A stretch of 64,000 nt of DNA from positions 2,170,001 through 2,234,000 of the forward strand of contig BCGN01000001.1 in NCBI GenBank assembly GCA_001599295.1, given 5' to 3'. This DNA comes from Sporopachydermia quercuum. Lineage: Eukaryota. Below are positions 13,807-64,000 of the stretch, in pieces (the first letter of the stretch is position 1; each line of letters starts with the position of its first letter). The notes under the pieces were generated by a model, which saw only the letters and a program-made list of their open reading frames with translations, was not told the origin of the DNA and ran no database searches. Made by a program: the position numbers and the translations under genes.

Positions 13807-15419
13807 TTATTGATCTGGAATCATCATGCTAATGTTCTGACAGTTGAGTTGATGAAAAGGATTACTATAAGCTTTTCCCGTTATCTTTTGATGAGATCAG
13901 GCATATTAGAAAGAGAGGAGTAATCCACGTTTTATAGGTGGAGAGCTCCTCACANCTCAACTTTATCATGTAAGGCGCTCTTAGTTCGGCGTTGTTCAGG
14001 TATCGAGGTATCTATATATTGACGTATTTCGTTTCGTATTAGCCCGTCATTTTCATATCATTTTCATAAGCTCTTTTTTATAGTTATTACGGAGAAATAT
14101 CTTTTTTTGTCTATGTCTATCTAATAATAATGATAATCACGAGAATCAATCTACAGCCAAGATTTGGCATCAAGGGCATAAACCACTTTGAGGAAGTTTC
14201 AGATAATTTGGTAATTTCATATTTTGAAACTCTTAGGTCCCAAGCTAATATTTCAATTACAGTAAAATTATTGTGTATCATTATGATTATGTCCATTATT
14301 TTGCTAATCTAATAAGATCTTGATAGTTTCAATGACTCATTCGTTGTTTGGCAATATATAATAAGCAGCACTTTTAATAGGTGACCACTAAAGGTAGCCG
14401 TAGAATGTAGACAGGTTTCAAAAGGTGTTAATGCTCGCTTTATCATTCCTTCTAGTATCATATATTTTCCACCTATTGATACGTAAGTATCATTAAGATC
14501 AATACATTCTATGGTTGTCAGCCTATTCTTGAAATGTTTTAGTATTATCAGATGGATGAATTTAGTATTCATTGTAGATTTTACTACCATATCATTTTTA
14601 ACAANAGTGAGAACTAATTAGTTTGGGAGATAATTATTCCCCATGGTTTGAACATATACCCGATATCAACGACGGCTGACTGATATAGATGCTTCTTCTT
14701 CTGCAATATTACCGTATATGTCGATTTGTTTGATGCCTCTCTATCCCGTATCATGATGATCAAAGGAAGATTGTGTGCTCGGACATTACATTGTAAACAC
14801 TTAGAGTAAGAAAGACTGACTTTGAGAAAGCAAACGTACTTCCGTTATGATCCTGATAACATCTACAACAGCTCAACTCATATTGCAAAGNCTGTTGCTC
14901 TTTCAAAGATCAGTGAGTGTTTATTGAACAACGTAAGGATTATTTGAGATATGTCGTAATTGCAGCAGTCTTTATAGTTGCGATTTCGCTTGTTTTGCTT
15001 CTGCAGTTGCACAACTATTCATGAGACAGAAACTACATTTGAGCTTGTAAAAGAAATCTCTGATCGCAAACGACTTTCTGTTATGGCTGTTATGCGTGAT
15101 TTGTTAATTTCCATTTAGACGCCTTTGCCATATCTGAATAAAAAGTGTCAAAATCTATTAATAACCAATTAATAAGTAGACGAGTTATATTTCGATGAGG
15201 AGAGATAGTATGTTAGTAGATATTCGTGCAAGCGTTGGCAACTTAACGAAAATGATCATGTCAATGACTGGCGAAACTACTAACAACTCCCTCATAACTA
15301 GTAACTTACCGCATATGATCACAGTAAATGCTCATTTAGTGCATTATTTACAATCGATTCAAAATAGTTTCCCAGAGCCCTCACAAAATCCTACGAATAT
15401 TTCATTTATAGAATATATA

Positions 15420-21212: not shown

Positions 21213-22589
21213 ATGGCAAGTCACAAAAATGATGATCCTTATGGATCTGATATCAATGATGACATTGCTCTGTCAAAAGATGATTCAAGTACGTGCAATT
21301 ACGATTCTATTACCAAGACTATGATGATATCCCATAGTCAATGGTTGATTCCCACCTATAATTTGACATGCTATGTCAATGTTCATTTTCGGTTGCCCAA
21401 TTTCGATCTTCCACTATTTTATTTTGTTCCTTTCCTTCTAACAGTAACATAGTCTATGCTGATGTAGATATCCATGAAGAAGGCTCAACTGGGAGCGCTA
21501 CTACTACAAATAATACATATGAACCCTCTGAAACTAATGGCACCAACATAACTGATATTCCAGATACTGGGGTATTGGGTAATGACATTTCGGAAAATAA
21601 GGGCACCGACGAAGGTGACAATGATAGTGAGGAGGAGGANGACGACGACGAAGAAGAAGACAGTGAATCTGTATGTATATTATTACTATGTCTAGGCATA
21701 CCAGACCAAGAATTTTCGGCTAGTCAAAATGACCAGTCCAATTTAACTGTTCGACCCCACTAACACATTTTTGTCCCAGGATATTGAGTTTATTATAGAT
21801 GCTGATCCAGGAACAAAAACTGATACTAGCAAAACGTCAACTACTGTCAAACAGCAACAACAACAGGAATACAACTCCCAAATTCAAGTACCATCTATAG
21901 ATGTGAACAAAGTAGCTGAATACAACGGAGCACCAATAACGGAACTAGACCTAGAAAAACTGGAGGAGAAACCTTGGAGGAAACCAGGAGCTGATATAAC
22001 TGATTACTTCAATTATGGCTTTGATGAGTTCTCGTGGATGATATATGTTAACAAACAAGAAAAATTAAGAGAAGATTTTGATATGGGCAAGATTGTCATG
22101 GATTATATGGCACATATGAGCACATTGACCAGTGAAGTTGCAGGAATGTCAGGAATGCCAGGAATGCCAGGAATGTCTGATCTACAGTATCCACCGGCAG
22201 CTGGAAATGTTGATAACCAACTGCAACAGATGCAACAAATGCAACAAATGCAACAGATGCAACAGATGCAGCAAATGCAGCAGATGCAACAAATGCAACA
22301 AATGCAAATGACCCCTGAAATACAACAGCAAATGATACTACAGTACCGTCAACAGCTAATTCAACAAGGATATGATGCTGCTACTGTTGACTCTATGGTT
22401 GGAGGAATGTTTCCTCAGCAGGATCAGAAATCAATAGGAAACGACTATTCACAGCAACATCAACATCAACAACCACAAGCACAACACCAGCAGCAGCATC
22501 AACAGTGGAATAATGGCTATTACGGAAATTATGATGGAAATAGTGGTGGAAGTGGAGGAAGCGGAAGAGATAGAAGAAACTGGAGATAA
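21213..22589 (+). CDS. FIP1: Pre-mRNA polyadenylation factor Fip1, 3 exons
   Basis: Exons 21213-21288, 21453-21670 and 21780-22589; introns GTACGT...TTCTAAC...TAG and GTATGT...CACTAAC...CAG join in frame. Fip1 motif EKPWRKPGADITDYFNYGFDEFSW. Confidence 0.93.
22224..22310 (+). repeat. Coding 9-bp minisatellite encoding (QQM)9 in Fip1
   Basis: CARCARATG repeated 9 times, then CAAATG. Confidence 0.9.
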
Positions 22590-37887: not shown

Positions 37888-39949
37888 TTACTCGCGGAAA
37901 AACCCTCCAAGGTGTTTTTTCTCATCATAAAACTCAACATAGAGTGTTCTCCCCAATAGCTCCTTACCATTGAGCTCATAGTACACTAACAAAGCATCCA
38001 AGCTCTGTTCAAACACCAGATAAACATCACAAACTTCTCCATTCTCAGCCCAAAAGATTCTCATTGCTGTTGGTTTCACTGGGAGCTTCATATCTTCTAA
38101 ACCGAAAGCAATGAAATCACATAATTCAGCATCACTTAATGTAATTTCAGCAGCATAATACAGATTTTTGATTAGCAGTACGGAAGAATGAACGCCGGTA
38201 TTTTTCGATGAATTGATTTCGGAACCTTTCGGAGTTATCGCGTTTGGTAATCCGAGATTTTCCGGGATCATATCTTCTTCAAATTCCTGGTCTTCAGTGA
38301 CCGGTTTAGAATTAACTAGCTTGGTATCAGGGTTAATAAATAAGATTTGTGTTTCCGCGAATTTGTGTTTCACAAATGATTTATTTTCGGGGATTTTATC
38401 CAAAGGAACTGAAGAAGCCAAAGAATCAGAATGGGCTGAAACCGGAGAGAATGTTTCGTTAGTTGATAGATCATCATTGAAAAGCATGTTATCTAAATTA
38501 GGGAACTCTGTGGCTTTACGAATAACTGGTTTCCGAGATCTTTTCCGAAAAACTGGTTTTTCTTCCGGCGCTGTTTCCTCTTTTCTGTTTGATATGATAC
38601 CATAACTAGGAGAATATGCACTTGACATTAACTCCGACAAATATTCCGGTGTGGTCTCCCGTTTAACACTGAATTCTAAGTTTGCACCAATAGTCGGCTC
38701 TATTTCCATCTTCAGTTCTAAATCCGGTTCCGATTCGGGCTCCGGTTCCCAAATCCAAATCGACATTTGTATCCACATTTCCATCACCCTCAACATCCAC
38801 GACCATGTCGATGTCTGCTTCCTGGTCAAAATTAGTTCCTGCTCCTTGTTTCGATTCTTGCTTGACATGCGAAACAGAATCCTGACTATTCAAACTTATG
38901 ACTTCTGACTGAGCGAAATTCGTTCCTTCACCTTCTGTCTCACCCAGCAATACAATAGATTGTTCAGGGTTCTGTTCCGCTTTTTGTAGTTTGATTTCCC
39001 GAACTTCGGCAGCCACCGTACTATCTTCTACATGTATAAACCGGGATCTGGTTCTCTTAATCTTTGTGAAATCGTCTCCGCTTTCACTGGATGTTCTATT
39101 AACTTGTACTTTCTTTTTCCGACCACGTTTCTTAGGTTTATAGGCTATCTCATATAGCGGATCAATTTTGGAACGAACAAGAGATTCCCCCTCAGAAGCT
39201 GTTCCTAACAGAGAATCGAAATTTTCTGCTTTTGAAGGGGAAATCAAGTCATTTTGGGCATTTTCGACTTGAATCTGTTGCGCCTTCTTATTATTCTTTG
39301 TTGATTTCGGTGATGGATTCTTTTTGTCTTCANTATGAGTTCCGCTAGTGCGTAGATATTGCTGTTGTTGTGTTGATTTGAGCTCCGGTTCTGGCTTTTC
39401 AGTATGTTTACCGGTTTCCTTCCGAGTCAATGAAGGCGAACGTGCCGTGCTTATCTTTGTGCTGCGTTTAGATTCCGATCTTGTCCGACTATTTCGATTC
39501 TTCAAATCAAGCCGTTGTTTCAAGTCTATTAGGTAGTTCCGCCAATGAATATCCTCCTCTATCTTATACTCAGACTCAATGTAAAATAAGAAAGAATTAG
39601 GCTGTGATGGCACATAGTCTTTCTCATAAGCGGCTTTTATTGGATCCGAGTTCTCTTTCTGGGGAAATAACAGTTTTAATTCCAATTGATGTTCCGGGGA
39701 TGGGTCTCTATGATAGTTCTCAACAGTTGAATCAGAATTTTCTTCCGTTCCGTTTTCCGAGACAGTTTTCTCCAAAATTCCATTTTTTCCATTGTTCATG
39801 TTCGGGCTCCGGTTCCGGCTGCTGCCTCTTTCTCTACTATCTTCTTCTCCATCGGAAATGTGCCTGCTAATAGGATTGAAATTCACAACTACTGTCCTTT
39901 CTACTTTGGCGTTTTCTGCTTCCGTTTTGACCCTCAACGTATTTTCCAT
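37888..39949 (-). CDS. Uncharacterised low-complexity protein with a C-terminal RRM-like domain, split by a +1 frame break near 38749
   Basis: ORFs 39949-38663 and 38868-37888 overlap; C-terminus LLIKNL...VYLVFEQSLDALLVYYELNGKELLGRTLYVEF is RRM-like; basic KPKKRGRKKK segment upstream. Confidence 0.6.
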
Positions 39950-40607: not shown

Positions 40608-41757
40608 ATGGCACCTCCTGGAGCTAGCACCATAGTAAGTATGACATAATCAATGACTCGGCGGGACTCTACATCCAACGCTGAATAAATCATAAAGAAT
40701 ACCAGAAAATAATGAATTACAACAATGAAATCTTTTTAAACCTACTAACAAATGATCCCAATCTTTTATAGATGAAGCTGAAAATTACGTTGAAGATGGC
40801 AATCAGCCGACTGAGACTGATCCAACAGAAACAAACAGCATTAGCTAAACAAGAAAGAAGAAACATGGCACAATTATTAGAAGTTGGTAAAGAAGAAAGC
40901 GCCCGGATAAGGGTTGAAAATATTATCCGAGAGGACATTTATGTTGAACTGCTAGAGATATTAGAACTCTATTGTGAGTTATTATTAGCTCGCATAGGGT
41001 TATTAGATTCAAAGTAAGTCATTGCTGGTAGTAGTTGATATTCCAATCAAACGAACTTCTGACATTATACAATACATGTACTAATATTTTACTCGATAGT
41101 GTATGCGATCCTGGACTGGAAGAAGCAGTGAAAACAATTATTTATGCAGCAAATAGATCAGACGTTAAGGAGTTACAGACCGTTAGAGAAATTCTTATAC
41201 ATAAGTTTGGCAAAGAATTTGCTCAAGATGCTATTGATAATGTAAACCGTGTGGTTCCAGATAGGGTGATTACGCGATTGTCAGTTGAGCCTCCAAGTCC
41301 AACATTGGTTTCCTTATACTTAAAAGAAATTGCAAAAGCTTATAAGGTACCATTTAGCGATTTGGATAAAGACGAGTCTTTACAAGAACTAATGGATGAA
41401 GTTAATGCAGAGAATGATAAAGAATATGATGGCAAAGGAGATTCTGGAGACGATGAAGGTGGATCTAGATCAGCACTAATTCCTAATCAACCAATTGGAA
41501 TTTCGGAGAAAGATGTTCATACTATTTCTAAAAAAGAATCAATGGAACGAAGGCTATCTGGAACAGCCAATCTACCTGATATTGGAGCTCCAAAGCCACC
41601 AATTGCCGTTTTACCTAAATCTCCGGCAACTGATGATCCGAAACCTAAATTATACATTCCGAAAGCTGCTACGATGAACAGCAATAAACCAACCTCAAAG
41701 GAAGATAAAGAGTTTGATGATTTACGGAAAAGATTTGAAGCATTAAAGAGACATTAA
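40608..41757 (+). CDS. IST1: ESCRT-III/Vps4 regulator Ist1, 3 exons
   Basis: Exons 40608-40634, 40772-41013 and 41100-41757 with GTAAGT donors and TACTAAC/TACTAAT branch points; ARIRVENIIREDIYVELLEILELYCELLLARIGL; C-terminal MIM motif DDLRKRFEALKR. Confidence 0.95.
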
Positions 41758-46056: not shown

Positions 46057-47701
46057 ATGGTAAGTTGAGATAAGCTCATAGTATCGAGACAGTACTTCAG
46101 TTCGGATTTTCTGATGACTCCAAAATACTCAATTCTGGAAAATACCGTGATTTGAACCAAATATCCTCGAATGTACTAACGACTATGTTTTAGTTTGGCG
46201 GGTACACTTCGAGTAACTCATGGGGTATTGACCCTTTTCAACAGTTTGGAGTTCCATTATCAATGGGAAACAAATTTGAGGATTACTTCCGATGTTATCC
46301 TATAGCAATGATGTCTGATCAAGATCGGAAAGATGATGCAAACTATGGTGGTAAGATTTTTCTTCCTCCTAGTGCGTTGAATAAGCTAAGTAAGTATTGG
46401 AATGAAAGTGATTAGAAGATAGTGACGATATNAGATGGTATAGGAATTGGGAGTATTTCAGTTGTATGACGAAACAGATAGGAAACGGAAAAGCATTATC
46501 AAAGCGGAATCAATCACAATCAATAACGGATGCCTCTCTTAGTCAAGGTACAATCAATTATCATCTATTACAGCCAATACTTCATCTAACCCCTTACTAT
46601 TATGATGGTAATGCTTAAGACTACCATTTGAAGTATTCTATCTTTACCATGATCTATCNCTGTATCATTTTACAGTATCATAACTAACATCGAATAGCTC
46701 AATTAAATATCTCATATCCTATGCTTTTCGAATTATACTGCGAAGAATCAGATTTTACTACTCATTCTGGTGTCTTAGAATTTCTAGCTGAGGAAGGAAG
46801 AGCTTATCTACCACAATGGATGATGGAAACACTAAAAGCACAACCAGGAAGTTTACTGAAAATCGGATCAACGGATGTACCACTCGGATCTTTTGTTAAG
46901 CTCGAACCACAATCAGTAGACTTTCTGGATATATCTGACCCCAAAGCTGTGTTGGAAAATGTATTACGGAAGTTCTCTACATTAACTGTTAATGATATCA
47001 TTGAAATCAATTATAATAATAAATCTTTCAAGATCAAAGTATTAGAAGTTAAACCAGAAAGCGATAGCCATTCTATTTGCGTTGTCGAGACAGATTTAGT
47101 CACTGATTTTGCCCCGCCAGTAGGGTACGTTGAGCCTGAGAGGGAGCGTGGAGGCTCTGCTTCTGCTTCGGGAAGCGGGATTACTTCTGGAACAGGATCT
47201 GCAAATATTTCAAGAGGCGGGACACCTGTGGGAACAATGGCAAAAACTATTAGGTATGAAGAATTAGCCCGGTCGAGTTCCAGTGTGAATCTACCTAGAT
47301 TTGCTAACAAAGGACAAAAACTATCTAGTCGGCAGTCACGGAGAAAAGCCGTAACGAGTGCTGGAACTGGAACAGAAACTGGAAAAGATGCAGACCAGGA
47401 TTCGGGTAAAAATCCTGGAACAGTCGATATTGAACCTTTGAGTGACATTCCTCTTGGCGATCCGGTAGCTTTGGAATTACCCTTTGGTCAATTATTCTTC
47501 GGATATCCAGTAGTTCCCGTGAAATCAGACCCGGATGCTGATGAATCAGCTTCCGGTGCCGAGGGAAATAAAGAAAACAGCAACCATTTTGCTGGAAAAG
47601 GGAACACTTTGAGACAAAACAGGAAGAGGAAAGATGGTCAGAAGTATGGAAGTGCTGTTAAGAATAAAGCTAGAAGTCCTGATGTGATTGAAATAGATTA
47701 A
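46057..47701 (+). CDS. UFD1: Cdc48 cofactor Ufd1, 3 exons (first exon is the ATG only)
   Basis: Exons 46057-46059, 46194-46389 (FEDYFRCYPIAMM...NYGGKIFLPPSALNKL) and 46698-47701 (THSGVLEFLAEEGRAYLPQWMM, DFAPPVGYVEP, FAGKGNTLR). Confidence 0.96.
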
Positions 47702-57107: not shown

Positions 57108-57731
57108 TTATTTTCTATACCATAAACGAGTGAGCTTAGTATCCATCATCCTACGTTGAAGTTGGAAGACACCATACATGAGAGCTTCAGCTGTTGGTGG
57201 ACATCCTGGGACGTAAACATCAACAGGGACAACACGATCACAACCTCTAACAACGGAATATGAATAATGATAATAACCACCGCCGTTAGCACAGGAGCCC
57301 ATAGAAATGACCCATCGAGGTTCAGGCATTTGGTCATAAACTTGACGTAAAGCTGGGGCCATCTTATTAGTTAGTGTACCAGCAACAATCATAATATCGG
57401 ATTGACGAGGAGAACCACGAAAAATAATACCCAATCTATCTTGATCATATCTCGGCGTGGACACATGCATCATTTCTACGGCACAACAGGCCAAACCAAA
57501 AGTAACGGGCCAAAATGATGATTTTCTACCCCACATAGCAATAGCGTCTAATGAAGTGAGGACATAGTCCAAAGCCGATTTTGGCTTTTGTTGGGAGATT
57601 AGTGGGAAGTTTGTAGCCAGTGATCCGTCGGGGTTTCTTGGGGCAACTGCTGATGTAGATGAGAACCGCACAACACTGCTGCTTATTATTCGCGGCATTT
57701 GACGATAACTTTGTGACAGAATTAAAGACAT
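57108..57731 (-). CDS. NUKM: Complex I core Fe-S subunit PSST (NDUFS7/NUKM)
   Basis: [46 protein letters not shown]. Confidence 0.97.
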
Positions 57732-59239: not shown

Positions 59240-60712
59240 TTAATGATGTCCGGGGAGGTCACCACCTTTAACAACACCTTTAGTGACATGAGCTTCTTTA
59301 TTCCAGCCACCAAAGGAAACCTCACCCATTTTTTCAGCGTACTCTCTTATCTTCTTTTCCATATCCGGTCTAAATGATTTGATTAAACCTTGGACAGGCC
59401 ATGCAGCAGCATCACCTAAAGCACAGATAGTATGACCCTCAATTTCTTTTGTCAGTTCAAAGATCATGTCGATCTCACGTTCCCTCGCTTGACCTGATGC
59501 AAATCTATCCATCATCTTCATTAACCAAGTAGTACCTTCACGGCAAGGAGTGCATTGACCACACGATTCGTGCTTGTAGAAGGCTGATAATCTTTGAATA
59601 GCTCTAACCATATCAGTACTCTTGTTCATCACAATAACAGCAGCAGTACCTAAGCCTGATCCTACATCCTTCAAAGCGTCGTAATCCATAAGAACGGTAT
59701 CACAAACATCTTTGGTCATAACAGGAACGGATGATCCACCAGGAATAACACCTAATAAATTATCCCAACCACCTATGATACCACCACAATGTCGTTCAAG
59801 CAATTCTTTNAACGGGATAGACATTTCTTCCTCAACTGTGCATGGTTCATTCACATGACCGGAAATACAGAACAATTTAGTTCCTGAATTTCTTTCTCTA
59901 CCAAAAGATGCAAACCAGTCACCACCTCTTCGTAAAATAGTAGGAGCAACAGCTACAGTTTCAACATTGGTGACCGTAGTTGGTCTACCGAAAAGACCGA
60001 CACCAGCAGGGAATGGGGGCTTTAGACGAGGCTTACCTTGTTTACCTTCAATGGATTCAATTAATGCAGTTTCTTCACCGCAAATGTAAGCTCCCATACC
60101 ACGGTGAATATAAACATCGAAATCATAACCAGAACCGCATGCATTCTTACCAATCAAACCAGAAGCGTAGGCTTCATTAATGGCGGTTTGAAGTACAACA
60201 GCTTCATTGTAAAATTCACCTCTAATATAAATATAAGCAGCAGTTGCATTCATAGCACGTCCAGCTAAAAGGCAACCTTCAACTAATTTATGGGGATCTT
60301 TTCTGATAATTTCACGATCTTTACAAGTGCCTGGTTCACCTTCATCAGCATTCACAACCAAATATCTTGGACCAGGATTCTTCTCCCATCCTGGAGGATT
60401 CATGAAAGACCATTTCAAACCCGATGGAAATCCAGCACCACCTCTACCTCTTAAACCGGACTTTTTCATTTCACCTATAATCCAACTATCACCCTTTAAT
60501 ATAATCTCTTTGGTTTTATACCAGTCTCCCATCTTCAAAGCAGATTTAAGATCATGCCCATATTTGTTATACACATTTTGAAAAATACGATCTGAATCTT
60601 TTAAACCTCCGTGAGCTTTCGAACTGCTGTCTGTGACTGTTGCAAATCCTCTTCTAAGGTTACTTCTGACAGCCGGCAGCATTCTGCTGCGCATGGCACT
60701 TCGATACAACAT
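59240..60712 (-). CDS. NUBM: Complex I FMN/NADH-binding 51-kDa subunit (NDUFV1/NUBM)
   Basis: ATG at 60712 ([10 protein letters not shown] presequence); [47 protein letters not shown]. Confidence 0.97.
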
Positions 60713-60841
60713 GTTCGTATGTGTATATATTATATGTAATGATGGAAAAATGCAACTCTTTTCAAGATCCCGTAAAACTTCTCTCTTCTTTATCGAAATC
60801 TGTTGTGTTTTGAACAAACCAGGCTAACAATAATCACTCTG

Positions 60842-61367
60842 TGATTGGTTTGCTTGTTTTTGTAGCCCCAAATCCGATCGTATATAATTCTAGATTCCTC
60901 TATGATAAATAACTGCTTAAGTAAATCGTTCAGCTTAGAACAATTCAACCTAAGAAATATATTTTCAGAATCTCGTCTAGTATTCAAAACAGTTCCTACT
61001 ACTTTGGCTCAATAAACAATTCCTATTGCAAAGCGTAAACAGTAAAAGAGTGTGAATGACTTGTAAATCCNTTTCTAAGTTATGTGTGGTGGTTTTTACT
61101 TTAGACAGTGTACTTTCTTGCCAATCCGCACAGCGTTAATTTTCTCAGGCTTATATGAAAGACTTTTGAAAAGCTTGATTGGTACCAAAAATAAACGTCG
61201 CCTATGAATCTATCAATATAATTCTTTTGAACGATCGGATATTAGAATAAATAAAAAATAATTGAAGCTGCCATTTTTATTGTGAAGATATGTTTACTCA
61301 CTATTATTCTAGTTCATCAATTGGTTAGATTTTATTATGCGTGTAATTTTCATTATCGCTGATTGGC
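60842..61367. promoter_or_regulatory. CCAAT (Hap2/3/5-type) boxes upstream of NUBM
   Basis: TGATTGGT at 60842 and 61176, TGATTGGC at 61360, GCCAATC at about 61120. Confidence 0.45.
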
Positions 61368-62498
61368 TAAAAGATATGCTTCGATTATGTAATACTTTAA
61401 TTTGAGATTGAGAATATTGGAAATATGAGGGCGCTTCACGAGATTAGTAATTGAGAATGTGAGGAGATGTGATGTCACATATTGGAACAGGTAGAATGTT
61501 ATGTTGACTGGAAAGGAGCTTGTATGGCAAATAGCAAGAATACCAAAGAAGAAGACATGGAATTATTAAATTAGGAAGTATATGAGGTTATAAGACAGGG
61601 TGTACATTTGAGAGTCACGAGAAAGAAAGTGGCAGAGTCCTTGCAGTATTGTATATGTACACAGGGTACATTCTGTTACATTAGCTTTCCATTTCTGAAT
61701 ATTCCAACCCCAGCCTTTCTATCGAGGAAATGCAGATTTTTCCATTGTCAAGTCCACATAGAACTAATCGATTTCTCATTTTCACGGTTTAAATCACTTT
61801 TTATCTTATTTCTTCTTTGAAAGTATCCCAGTCCTAGTTAAACAATTCAAATCCGGAACCAGTTACCAATTTGAGTGTTTAGCGAGATCCATGTCCCATT
61901 CCAGTATAGTTATCCATATAGCCGCCTTTAGATTTATTGTCTTGCTCCTCTCATTCATGAAAATGGTTCCATTTCAAATGTTGTAAATGTCAACTGAGTA
62001 ACGTCTAAATTACAATTTAGAAAAATTATCCATAATTCACTCCGTTTGAAATATTTATTGATAGAATTATATCTGTCTGACTGTTTAACTGCAGATAGCA
62101 AGGATGACTCAATGTAAGGTCCAGACTGAGAAAGTTTATAGTCATATGCAACTTTATGCAACAACTTAAACCACTTCCTAATTCTTCATGTAGGGGTAAT
62201 GCATGCCAGGCGGCAGAATATCTCTAAAGGGTGAACTCTTATCTTCATAATAGTCTCAATCCAACCTTAAGAAAGCCTATCATATCATACCAGGAACTTT
62301 AAGTAGACTTAACAGCTGTATAAATACCTAGAATATCGCTTGTATTGTGACCTCTTTATAGCTTAAATTCATAACAGATACTGATATTTTAAGTAGATAG
62401 ATAGTCCGTTCTCTAACTTATAGTTTAAACACATAAATTCAACTGAAAGTACAAACAAAACAGTGTCTCTAAATCGAACAATTACAATACTTATCATA

Positions 62499-62725
62499 AT
62501 GGAACCCACAACTGCCCCAACTACTGCATCTGCTACTTCTTCTTCTACTTCCTCTGAAGGATCATGCTGTGGAAGCAGATGCCAGTGTGGAACCAATTGC
62601 TCTTGCTGTGCTCCTTCCTGCAACACTACTAAGTAAGTTAAATTGATTCTCTTAGCTCATCGCGTTCTACATTTAGAGTAGAGCTTTCGGGGTTTTTGAT
62701 ATACTAATATATATCTAGGTTGTAA
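62499..62725 (+). CDS. Small metallothionein-like protein (45 aa unspliced, ending 62636; 46 aa spliced, ending 62725)
   Basis: MEPTTAPTTASATSSSTSSEGSCCGSRCQCGTNCSCCAPSCNTTK: 8 Cys in CC, CxC and CxCC clusters, no aromatic residues; TATAAA at about 62318; good ATG context (ATAATGG). Putative intron 62633-62718. Confidence 0.8.
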
Positions 62726-63092
62726 ATATGACTATACAACATAAATTTGACTGGATCTTGGGAAGGGTATATAATATAAAGATGGGGAGCTAGCCTCTCA
62801 AATAATGAAATATCGATTAAATTTGCCAAAAGAGCTACCATGTAGTTTGTAGATGATCCCGAAGCAATGCTTCATGTTAAGCCAGCAAGAACATCATAAA
62901 GCTATTAATGATGTCAAACAAATTACTAATAATAATGGTAATACAAAAATTCCTATTGATTAGTTTTGATTTGTTTACTCAAACTATATACTATGGCAAA
63001 CCAGCCTATTTACGATCAGAAGTTCCACTTGTTCAATCATCAAAAACCTATTCCATTATTACCAAAGTGGTCTCAATATATAAAGTTGTTAT

Positions 63093-64000
63093 TTACAATT
63101 TGGCACGAGGAGACAATTGAAGCACAGCTTTTCTCAATCTAGCAGACAAATCATCATTAACCTTAGCAAACATTTCAAAACATTTGTCTTGTATTTCGGG
63201 TCTTGCTCCAGAAATACTTCCAGCCAAGTTCTTGATCAAGTTCTCCTGACCTTTAGGATATCTAGCCAATACATGCCAAAGATCATTTGGTTGCTTATAA
63301 TCACCATCAGGAACTGATGCCATCCAGTGGTAAGAAGTGGCAGCTCCAACCCACGTTTCATGTGATTCAGCAGTTTGCAAATCCTTCCTGAAAATAGTAG
63401 GAGTAGAATATGAAGCATAATAGTTTGGCTCAGCACCATAGTTACCATTAACAACCATCGCACCATCTCTTTGATAAGGATTCCAAACCTTATTTGGTGC
63501 ATTTACTGGAATTTGCTTGTAATTAACACCCAATCTATATCTTTGGGTATCAGGATAAGAAAACAAACGTGATTGTAAAACAGGATCAGCAGATGGTTCT
63601 TGACCTGGAACAGTATGAGAAGGAGAAAATGCTGCCTGTTCAACTTCAGCAAAATAGTTCTTTGGGTTTTCATTCAAAACAAGCTTACCAAATCTTCTCA
63701 ATGGGAAATCCTTGTGTGGCCAAACTTTGGTTAGATCAAAAACAGAGAATGGAAGCTTCTCCGCTTGTTCAGCAGTCATATACTGAAGATAGACGGTCCA
63801 TGAAGGATACTCTTTTCTTTCAATAGCTTCAAATAAATCTTGTTGAGCATGATCTGGATTTTCACCAGACAACTTAGTAGATTGAGTTTGATCCATGGTT
63901 TCAAAACCGAGATCAGAAATCAAGTGAACTTGAACGTAGTACCATTCACCTTTTTTGTTATACCACTTGTATGTATGACCGGAGTAACCATGCATATGTC
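63093..64000 (-). CDS. CTA1: Peroxisomal small-subunit catalase (3' part; 5' end lies beyond the window)
   Basis: MHGYSGHTY, FDLTKVWPH, NYFAEVEQAAFSP, heme-ligand motif RLFSYPDTQRYRLG; ends in PTS1 -AKL. Confidence 0.96.
   Translation of the reverse strand, partial: HMHGYSGHTYKWYNKKGEWYYVQVHLISDLGFETMDQTQSTKLSGENPDHAQQDLFEAIERKEYPSWTVYLQYMTAEQAEKLPFSVFDLTKVWPHKDFPLRRFGKLVLNENPKNYFAEVEQAAFSPSHTVPGQEPSADPVLQSRLFSYPDTQRYRLGVNYKQIPVNAPNKVWNPYQRDGAMVVNGNYGAEPNYYASYSTPTIFRKDLQTAESHETWVGAATSYHWMASVPDGDYKQPNDLWHVLARYPKGQENLIKNLAGSISGARPEIQDKCFEMFAKVNDDLSARLRKAVLQLSPRAKL

Follow-up and report, generated by a model that had tools for sequence, protein, structure and literature searches.

The window, as the whole 64,000-nucleotide stretch analysed here is called, very probably contains at positions 62499 to 62725 a gene of two exons that encodes a small, Cys-rich, copper-thionein-like protein, and the splicing of its ordinary 86-nt intron would lead to the conserved C-terminal end CNTTKL. 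Splicing would join the AA that closes exon 1 to G-TTG-TAA, thereby yielding …CNTTKL. Removal of the intron is probably efficient, as with this yeast's other introns that carry consensus signals, and the form ending in TTKL would then be the main product. The 7-8 Cys residues of the protein would be expected to bind Cu(I) or another soft metal, and a weak peroxisomal targeting signal of type 1 (PTS1) is one candidate role for the invariant NTT[K/R]L tail. The more useful result is the family to which the protein belongs, whose members are about 50 residues long, thionein-like and essentially unannotated, carry an invariant C-terminal motif and are kept beside catalase.

Structure of the small gene and its predicted intron

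The features of the gene and of its immediate neighbour are as follows.

62319..62326, + strand: TATA-like element TATAAATA, about 180 nt 5' of the ATG (TATAAA at -180), found in a motif scan as a consensus match only
62499..62632, + strand: exon 1 from the ATG on, encoding an N-terminal half rich in S/T and a C-terminal half rich in Cys (8 Cys), its last bases being the AA of a Lys codon
62633..62718, + strand: predicted 86-nt phase-2 spliceosomal intron, with GTAAGT at 62633-62638, TACTAAT at 62702-62708 and TAG at 62716-62718
62634..62636, + strand: TAA stop codon of the open reading frame, located inside the donor hexamer and used only if the intron is retained
62719..62725, + strand: coding part of the predicted exon 2, consisting of G (completing the Lys codon AAG), TTG (Leu) and TAA (stop)
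63093..63998, - strand: 3' part of a catalase gene (Pfam Catalase, E 2.5e-88), ending …PRAKL and truncated at the end of the window

In the genomic sequence the reading frame extends from the ATG at 62499 to a stop codon ending at 62636, thus encoding 45 amino acids, and it closes with ACT ACT AAG (62631-62633) TAA (62634-62636). After splicing the product would number 46 residues. The encoded protein contains 8 Cys and is devoid of Phe, Trp, Tyr and His. As read from the window, the predicted ends are …CNTTKL for the spliced message and …CNTTK for the retained one, each followed directly by a stop. The intron would interrupt the penultimate (Lys) codon between its second and third bases, such that the downstream coding sequence comprises 7 bases including the stop. 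The introns of budding yeasts are located mostly near the 5' end of the gene, and a 7-base terminal coding exon is unusual.

The upstream interval (60713-62498, ∼1.8 kb), which reaches to the gene for the 51-kDa subunit of complex I, includes no ORF longer than 45 amino acids. A search of Rfam with positions 60700-63100 returned a single sub-threshold match (61744-61836, 26 bits versus a gathering score of 55), and the intron would therefore carry neither a snoRNA nor another known RNA. Isolated single N positions, 55 in the whole window and none of them in runs, are absent from 62499-62725; they possibly represent heterozygous positions that were masked in a diploid assembly. The 51-kDa-type gene (59240-60712, - strand) lies close to a second nuclear complex-I subunit gene, of the 20-kDa/PSST type (57108-57731, - strand), and the presence of the two indicates that this yeast keeps respiratory complex I. 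Elsewhere on the same strand, the region 37888-39949 is occupied by two overlapping long ORFs (37888-38868 and 38663-39949) with no Pfam match, possibly a single gene interrupted by a frameshift, by an N or by an intron.

The initial annotation had described the end of the ORF, the donor, the branch point, the acceptor and the intron length of 86 nt, and each of these was recovered at the positions listed above. In its donor, branch site, YAG acceptor and length, the interval 62633-62718 agrees with the introns of this yeast, and apart from its position in the gene it is an ordinary one. For an estimate of chance occurrence, a full signal set was defined as GTAAGT, followed 30-140 nt downstream by TACTAAY and then by the first AG 3-30 nt after it, on either strand. 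Four such sets were detected in the window, versus a mean of 0.32 in 300 dinucleotide-preserving shuffles, at least one being found in 27% of the shuffles. The remaining three of the four sets are IST1 introns 1 and 2 and UFD1 intron 1. A longer intron (62633-62963, 331 nt) was also considered and was rejected; it does not give the conserved tail and reads into the 3' region of the catalase gene.

The following introns of the same window served for comparison.

41014-41099: IST1 intron 2, 86 nt, phase 2, GTAAGT, TACTAAT, joining positions 1-76 of the Pfam Ist1 profile to positions 81-164
46390-46697: UFD1 intron 2, GTAAGT, AACTAAC, joining UFD1_N1 positions 1-35 to positions 37-97
28539-28451, - strand: BUD4-like 5' intron, 89 nt, GTATGT, TACTAAC, known by its signals only

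Two of the introns, IST1 intron 2 and UFD1 intron 2, were verified by the continuity of the Pfam profile across them, and three more are known by signals only. The ordinary introns (IST1 intron 2 and the UFD1 introns) share with that of the small gene the donor GTAAGT, a branch site of the form (T/A)ACTAA(C/T) and an acceptor AG that ends 10-22 nt after the branch heptamer; for IST1 intron 2 the length, the donor and the branch variant are identical. In contrast to all of these, only the small-gene intron leaves 7 coding bases, stop included. The likeness to introns of 86-89 nt, claimed at the outset for IST1, CIT1 and BUD4, thus stands for IST1 intron 2 (86 nt, verified) and, by signals, for the BUD4-like intron (89 nt), while of the CIT1 intron the acceptor region alone was seen. 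The stop codon under the donor, to which attention had also been drawn, is indeed present, but it is not special: a phase-2 intron that starts with GTAAGT brings it about automatically, and in IST1 intron 2 the donor context (TCA AA/G TAA GT, the slash marking the splice site) places a stop in the same position.

Near the 3' end of CIT1, two signal sets face one another, GTATGT…TACTAAC…TAG (15208-15301, + strand) and GTAAGT…TACTAAC (15309-15155, - strand). Since no gene is recognised in the region 15155-15309, decoy-like sets evidently exist in this DNA.

A family of small Cys-rich proteins and its conserved tail

Direct searches with the 45-residue ORF produced no homologues. A word-based protein search yielded zero candidates, in a collection from which the window's own protein is absent; phmmer gave no match at E<=1e-3 among 1.84 billion representatives; and a metagenome scan returned 595 pattern matches, of which none was confirmed. 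In the main texts of the literature, the string CNTTKL was encountered in three papers, all of them on HIV. The family was opened solely by a metagenome scan anchored on the catalase, which provided 80 loci, nine of them (L001-L008 and L015) with yeast-like catalases of 58-62% identity. The loci were screened for Cys-dense frames, and the 80 loci together with the window were then subjected to a six-frame HMM search. The small ORF was detected in L002, L004, L007 and L015 (E 3e-23 to 9e-15), the next best hit having an E value of 0.57, and the frame of the window was recognised with 58 bits (E 9.3e-16). A profile of five sequences (A1) matched 3 of 589 candidate database proteins, 47-56 amino acids in length, with E values of 1.1e-4, 1.2e-4 and 2.1e-3. 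The only named homologue among these three is the Zygosaccharomyces bailii protein with the locus tag BN860_06480g1_1.

The resulting alignment (A2) comprises eight sequences, namely the window protein, those of L002, L004, L007 and L015, and the three database proteins (P0121-P0123). The columns without any variation hold the initial Met, CCG, C-x-C-G, C-x-C and C-N-T-T, and the core of the family can be written as CCG-x(2-10)-C[K/Q]CG[S/T]xCxC-x(2-4)-CNTT[K/R]L-COOH. The relatives are 47-56 residues long and contain 7-11 Cys. Compared with them, the window protein has one more Cys and a two-residue insertion (CSCC-APS-C), and it lacks the extra N-terminal Cys residues that are present in most relatives.

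With respect to the organisms involved, the catalase of L002 is 89% identical to that of Yamadazyma tenuis, the catalase of L004 is 82-83% identical to CTA1 of Candida jiufengensis and C. oxycetoniae, and that of L007 is 92% identical to the catalase of Metschnikowia bicuspidata, all of which represent genera that we take to be CTG-clade yeasts. The L015 catalase shares 89% identity with an unnamed protein. Judged from the sequences collected here, i.e., CTG-clade-like loci, Z. bailii of the Saccharomycetaceae and the lineage of the window, the family is distributed over much of the diversity of budding yeasts.

In all seven relatives the tail is encoded in one uninterrupted frame. Six of them, L002, L004, L007 and the three database proteins, end in CNTTKL, and the seventh (L015) ends in CNTTRL. 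When the gene ends were aligned at the DNA level, the 86 nt appeared as an insertion in the window only, placed between the Lys and Leu codons, and the intron is absent from all four relatives for which DNA is at hand (L002, L004, L007 and L015). At the predicted junction Lys is followed by Leu and a stop, the order seen in all seven relatives, and the spliced end of the window gene, AAG TTG TAA, consists of the same nine bases as the end of the intronless L002 gene. The estimated chance that a random exon 2 would open with the completion of Lys, a Leu codon and a stop is ∼0.4%, given the base composition of the window. Among the species, the codons of the tail vary synonymously (TGC/TGT, ACT/ACC/ACG, TTG/CTT and TAA/TAG), and the sole replacement is Lys to Arg, which points to purifying selection on the tail peptide.

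The uninterrupted CNTT[K/R]L of the seven relatives, combined with an 86-nt stretch inserted only in the window, argues that the intron is real; we hold it to be highly likely that this is so and that the mature protein ends in …CNTTKL. By the same alignment, splicing restores an ancestral, family-wide tail and does not create a new one, the retained TTK form is a protein without the otherwise invariant Leu, and the predicted intron is a lineage-specific insertion or retention. The proposal of the initial annotation, that splicing adds one Leu and creates a -TKL tail, is thereby borne out for the TKL end, as indicated by the seven relatives and the window-only insertion, but is to be corrected with regard to its creation, since the tail is ancestral. 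Conservation in related yeasts is likewise divided: an xKL end is found in 6 of the 7 relatives (TRL in the other), but the intron in none of the 4 with DNA. Provided that splicing occurs as predicted, the gene is an example of a budding yeast preserving a terminal coding exon of 7 bases, and both the small gene and its actual end will escape annotation pipelines.

The catalase neighbour and a possible peroxisomal role

The tail-to-tail arrangement with catalase, pointed out at the beginning, was confirmed: the small gene is convergent with the catalase gene on the - strand (63093-63998) in the window, and equally so in the four metagenome loci L002, L004, L007 and L015. The gap from stop to stop amounts to ∼160-525 nt in these four loci, compared with 367 nt for the spliced gene of the window. 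Of the nine loci with yeast-like catalases, six extend 1 kb or more past the catalase gene; four of the six contain the small gene, and the other two (L005 and L008) do not. The flanks of L001, L003 and L006 extend for only 120-404 nt beyond catalase. The linkage emerged from a search of catalase flanks and so conveys no information on copies located elsewhere.

The catalase fragment of the window is 61-67% identical to its best database relatives, the nearest named ones being from Blastobotrys, Sugiyamaella and Trichomonascus. At so low an identity, no close relative of the source yeast would be represented in the collection. The fragment terminates in …LSPRAKL and thus carries the canonical tripeptide AKL. 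Among the nine yeast-like catalases from the metagenome loci, seven terminate in …LSPR or …LSPRK, that of L007 ends in …SRK and that of L008 in …SEA. On the evidence of these termini, the lineage of the window seems to have added AKL to a common …LSPR end. In terms of codon usage, CTG codons number 77 (0.79%) in the window, and none occurs in the catalase fragment.

The conserved T-[K/R]-L at the end of the small protein could itself be a weak PTS1. The protein would then be imported in part into peroxisomes by Pex5 and would provide copper or thiol-redox buffering there alongside the H2O2-producing oxidases and catalase, and in the lineage of the window retention of the intron might in addition set the ratio of the cytosolic TTK form to the TTKL form competent for import. 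We consider this role unlikely, although several properties of the tail are consistent with it. T[K/R]L is conserved in all seven relatives and in the spliced product of the window, and the sole change in the tail, Lys to Arg, is one that a PTS1 tolerates at position -2. As had been remarked from the start, however, TKL is non-canonical, the Thr at -3 lying outside S/A/C and thus outside the canonical pattern (S/A/C)-(K/R/H)-(L/M). Precedents for such tripeptides are nevertheless available in excerpts of the literature: TKL is listed among the established PTS1 tripeptides of plants (PMC9542071), it is termed "weak but functional" in zebrafish Urad, with weak targeting in COS-7 cells (PMC8919083), and in the fungus Histoplasma the rare xKL tripeptides -HKL and -PKL are sufficient (PMC13343957). 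On the other hand, the surroundings of the tripeptide are not those of a typical signal. No basic residue lies upstream of it, and the last metal-binding Cys, at -6, leaves a short free tail. Thr at -4 and Asn at -5 are invariant as well, which exceeds the needs of a PTS1; the role of the tail may therefore lie with another partner or with the metal cluster.

The position of the gene can be viewed in the same manner. Its convergent location next to the catalase gene, shared by the window and 4 of 6 informative loci (with catalases 58-61% identical to that of the window), would fit a peroxisomal function, but this linkage was ascertained through the catalase flanks themselves. The promoters contribute little. 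In the five promoters, a scan for regulatory motifs (Ace1/Cup2-type, Mac1-type, CCTCGG, ORE, STRE and Yap1) revealed no consistent pattern. With regard to induction by copper, this outcome carries little weight in either direction. CCTCGG, a fatty-acid-responsive element of FarA/Ctf1-type regulators, is present at -163 from the ATG in L002 and at -151 in L015, and an ORE-like CGG…CCG at -74 in L015, occurrences that may be due to chance; neither motif was found upstream of the ORF in the window, L004 or L007. The CCTCGG or ORE-like motifs are thus present in only two of five promoters, which speaks against a peroxisomal role. A search for literature on a metallothionein with a PTS1 in the peroxisomal matrix together with copper was matched, in the texts covered, only by a paper that apparently concerns the targeting signal of human catalase.

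A switch based on intron retention is still less probable, and we rate it as very unlikely. PTS1 isoforms that depend on splicing are described for malate dehydrogenase of Yarrowia lipolytica in the relevant part of PMC3798809, and in this respect a switch would have a parallel. However, the four intronless relatives have no means for a splicing switch, so that it would not be a property of the family. Moreover, the splice signals conform fully to the consensus, like those of IST1 intron 2, UFD1 intron 2 and the three introns known by signals only, and nothing therefore hints at regulated retention. The complete proposal, i.e., an unrecognised copper-thionein-like family of budding yeasts with NTT[K/R]L as a weak PTS1, linked to catalase over the long term and provided here with an intron through which the efficiency of splicing would decide on the targeting Leu, is in our assessment rather improbable. 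Were the tail a targeting signal, metal or thiol buffering would be linked to peroxisomal H2O2 metabolism, and if NTT[K/R]L truly is a weak PTS1, these proteins would be the first peroxisome-directed metallothioneins. If the tail is not a targeting signal, it would still constitute a cleanly testable short motif.

The weakest alternative, which we regard as highly improbable, is that the splice signals are due to chance or are a relic in the 3' UTR, and that the unspliced mRNA encodes a 45-residue protein that ends in …TTK and has lost the terminal Leu: some 0.3 full signal sets per window are expected by chance and decoy sets do exist (15208-15301 on the + strand, facing 15309-15155, with no recognised gene), but the predicted junction recreates the Lys-Leu-stop of seven relatives with nine bases identical to L002, a junction of this kind would arise by chance in ∼0.4% of cases, besides the chance of signals at this one codon, and in size, donor and branch variant the intron is identical to the verified IST1 intron 2.

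Comparison with metallothioneins and with other splice-dependent tails

The two-exon gene ending in CNTTKL remains the preferred reading, and its product was compared with known metallothioneins. The name "metallothionein" that was given to it initially is appropriate to the Cys pattern, but no significant Pfam, PDB or phmmer match accompanies it. In Pfam, the window protein had no match at E<=10, and for the eight family members the best match was Metallothio_2, with an E value of 1.4, in 2 of the 8. In the PDB, the window protein was matched only by scorpine (E 1.9-4.6), and the family profile produced no match. In neither database was significant similarity to known metallothioneins thus detected. 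In the Atlas, the ORF drew weak hints of metallothionein clusters at scores of 0.75-0.82, and the leads taken together scored 0.75-0.84. In composition, the protein has the small size, the high content of Cys and the lack of aromatic residues that are typical of the fungal family-8 copper metallothioneins. Since the likeness is one of Cys pattern only, the label "metallothionein-like (copper-thionein-like)" is applied here by inference.

Cys repeats also occur in another part of the window, in an ORF of 183 residues (22038-22589, + strand) without a Pfam match. They are found especially at 22222-22306, as CQE and CNK/CNR triplets, and the opposite strand of the repeats reads as runs of ICC; they probably represent a coding repeat of the trinucleotide type.

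The pattern of the fungal family-8 metallothioneins, as given in an excerpt of PMC4755600, is X2-[CXC]-X5-[CXC]-X3-[CXC]-X2-C-X3. The spacing in the seven relatives is [CXC]-X3-[CXC]-X2-C, and that in the window protein is CXC-X3-CXCC-X3-C, the first motif being CC in each case, so that the agreement with the pattern is partial. The family-8 copper metallothioneins of Neurospora crassa and Agaricus bisporus resemble the present family in being tiny, Cys-rich and free of aromatic residues. In particular, the second half of the family-8 pattern in the same excerpt (PMC4755600) is matched by the sequence C-x-C-G-[S/T]-x-C-x-C-x-x-C and the short tail after it, which includes Lys. In contrast to these copper metallothioneins, the first motif here is CC instead of CXC and the spacing is variable (x3-x11). 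Furthermore, the present proteins are extended at the N terminus by an S/T-rich stretch of 20-35 residues and have the invariant five-residue tail NTT[K/R]L.

An intron close to the 3' end of a metallothionein gene may have a counterpart in PaMt1 of Podospora. In the section of PMC2654708 that lists the primers, the complement of the genomic reverse primer reads …ctatag, which resembles an acceptor, and then the final 20 bases of the coding sequence. From this primer, and not from a statement of the authors, a 3'-proximal intron can be deduced for PaMt1, which would be shared with the small gene, although its position would differ from that of the intron described here.

The closest parallels for the gene end as such are malate dehydrogenase of Y. 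lipolytica and GAPDH and PGK of Ustilago, in which an intron at the extreme 3' end likewise decides on an end of the x-K-L type, according to the part of PMC3798809 concerned. In those cases, as reported there, two splice forms were demonstrated, and the PTS1-bearing form is a minor, added one. The small gene differs from the Yarrowia and Ustilago examples in that a single splice form is predicted, and in that its tail is ancestral and is encoded without an intron in its relatives.
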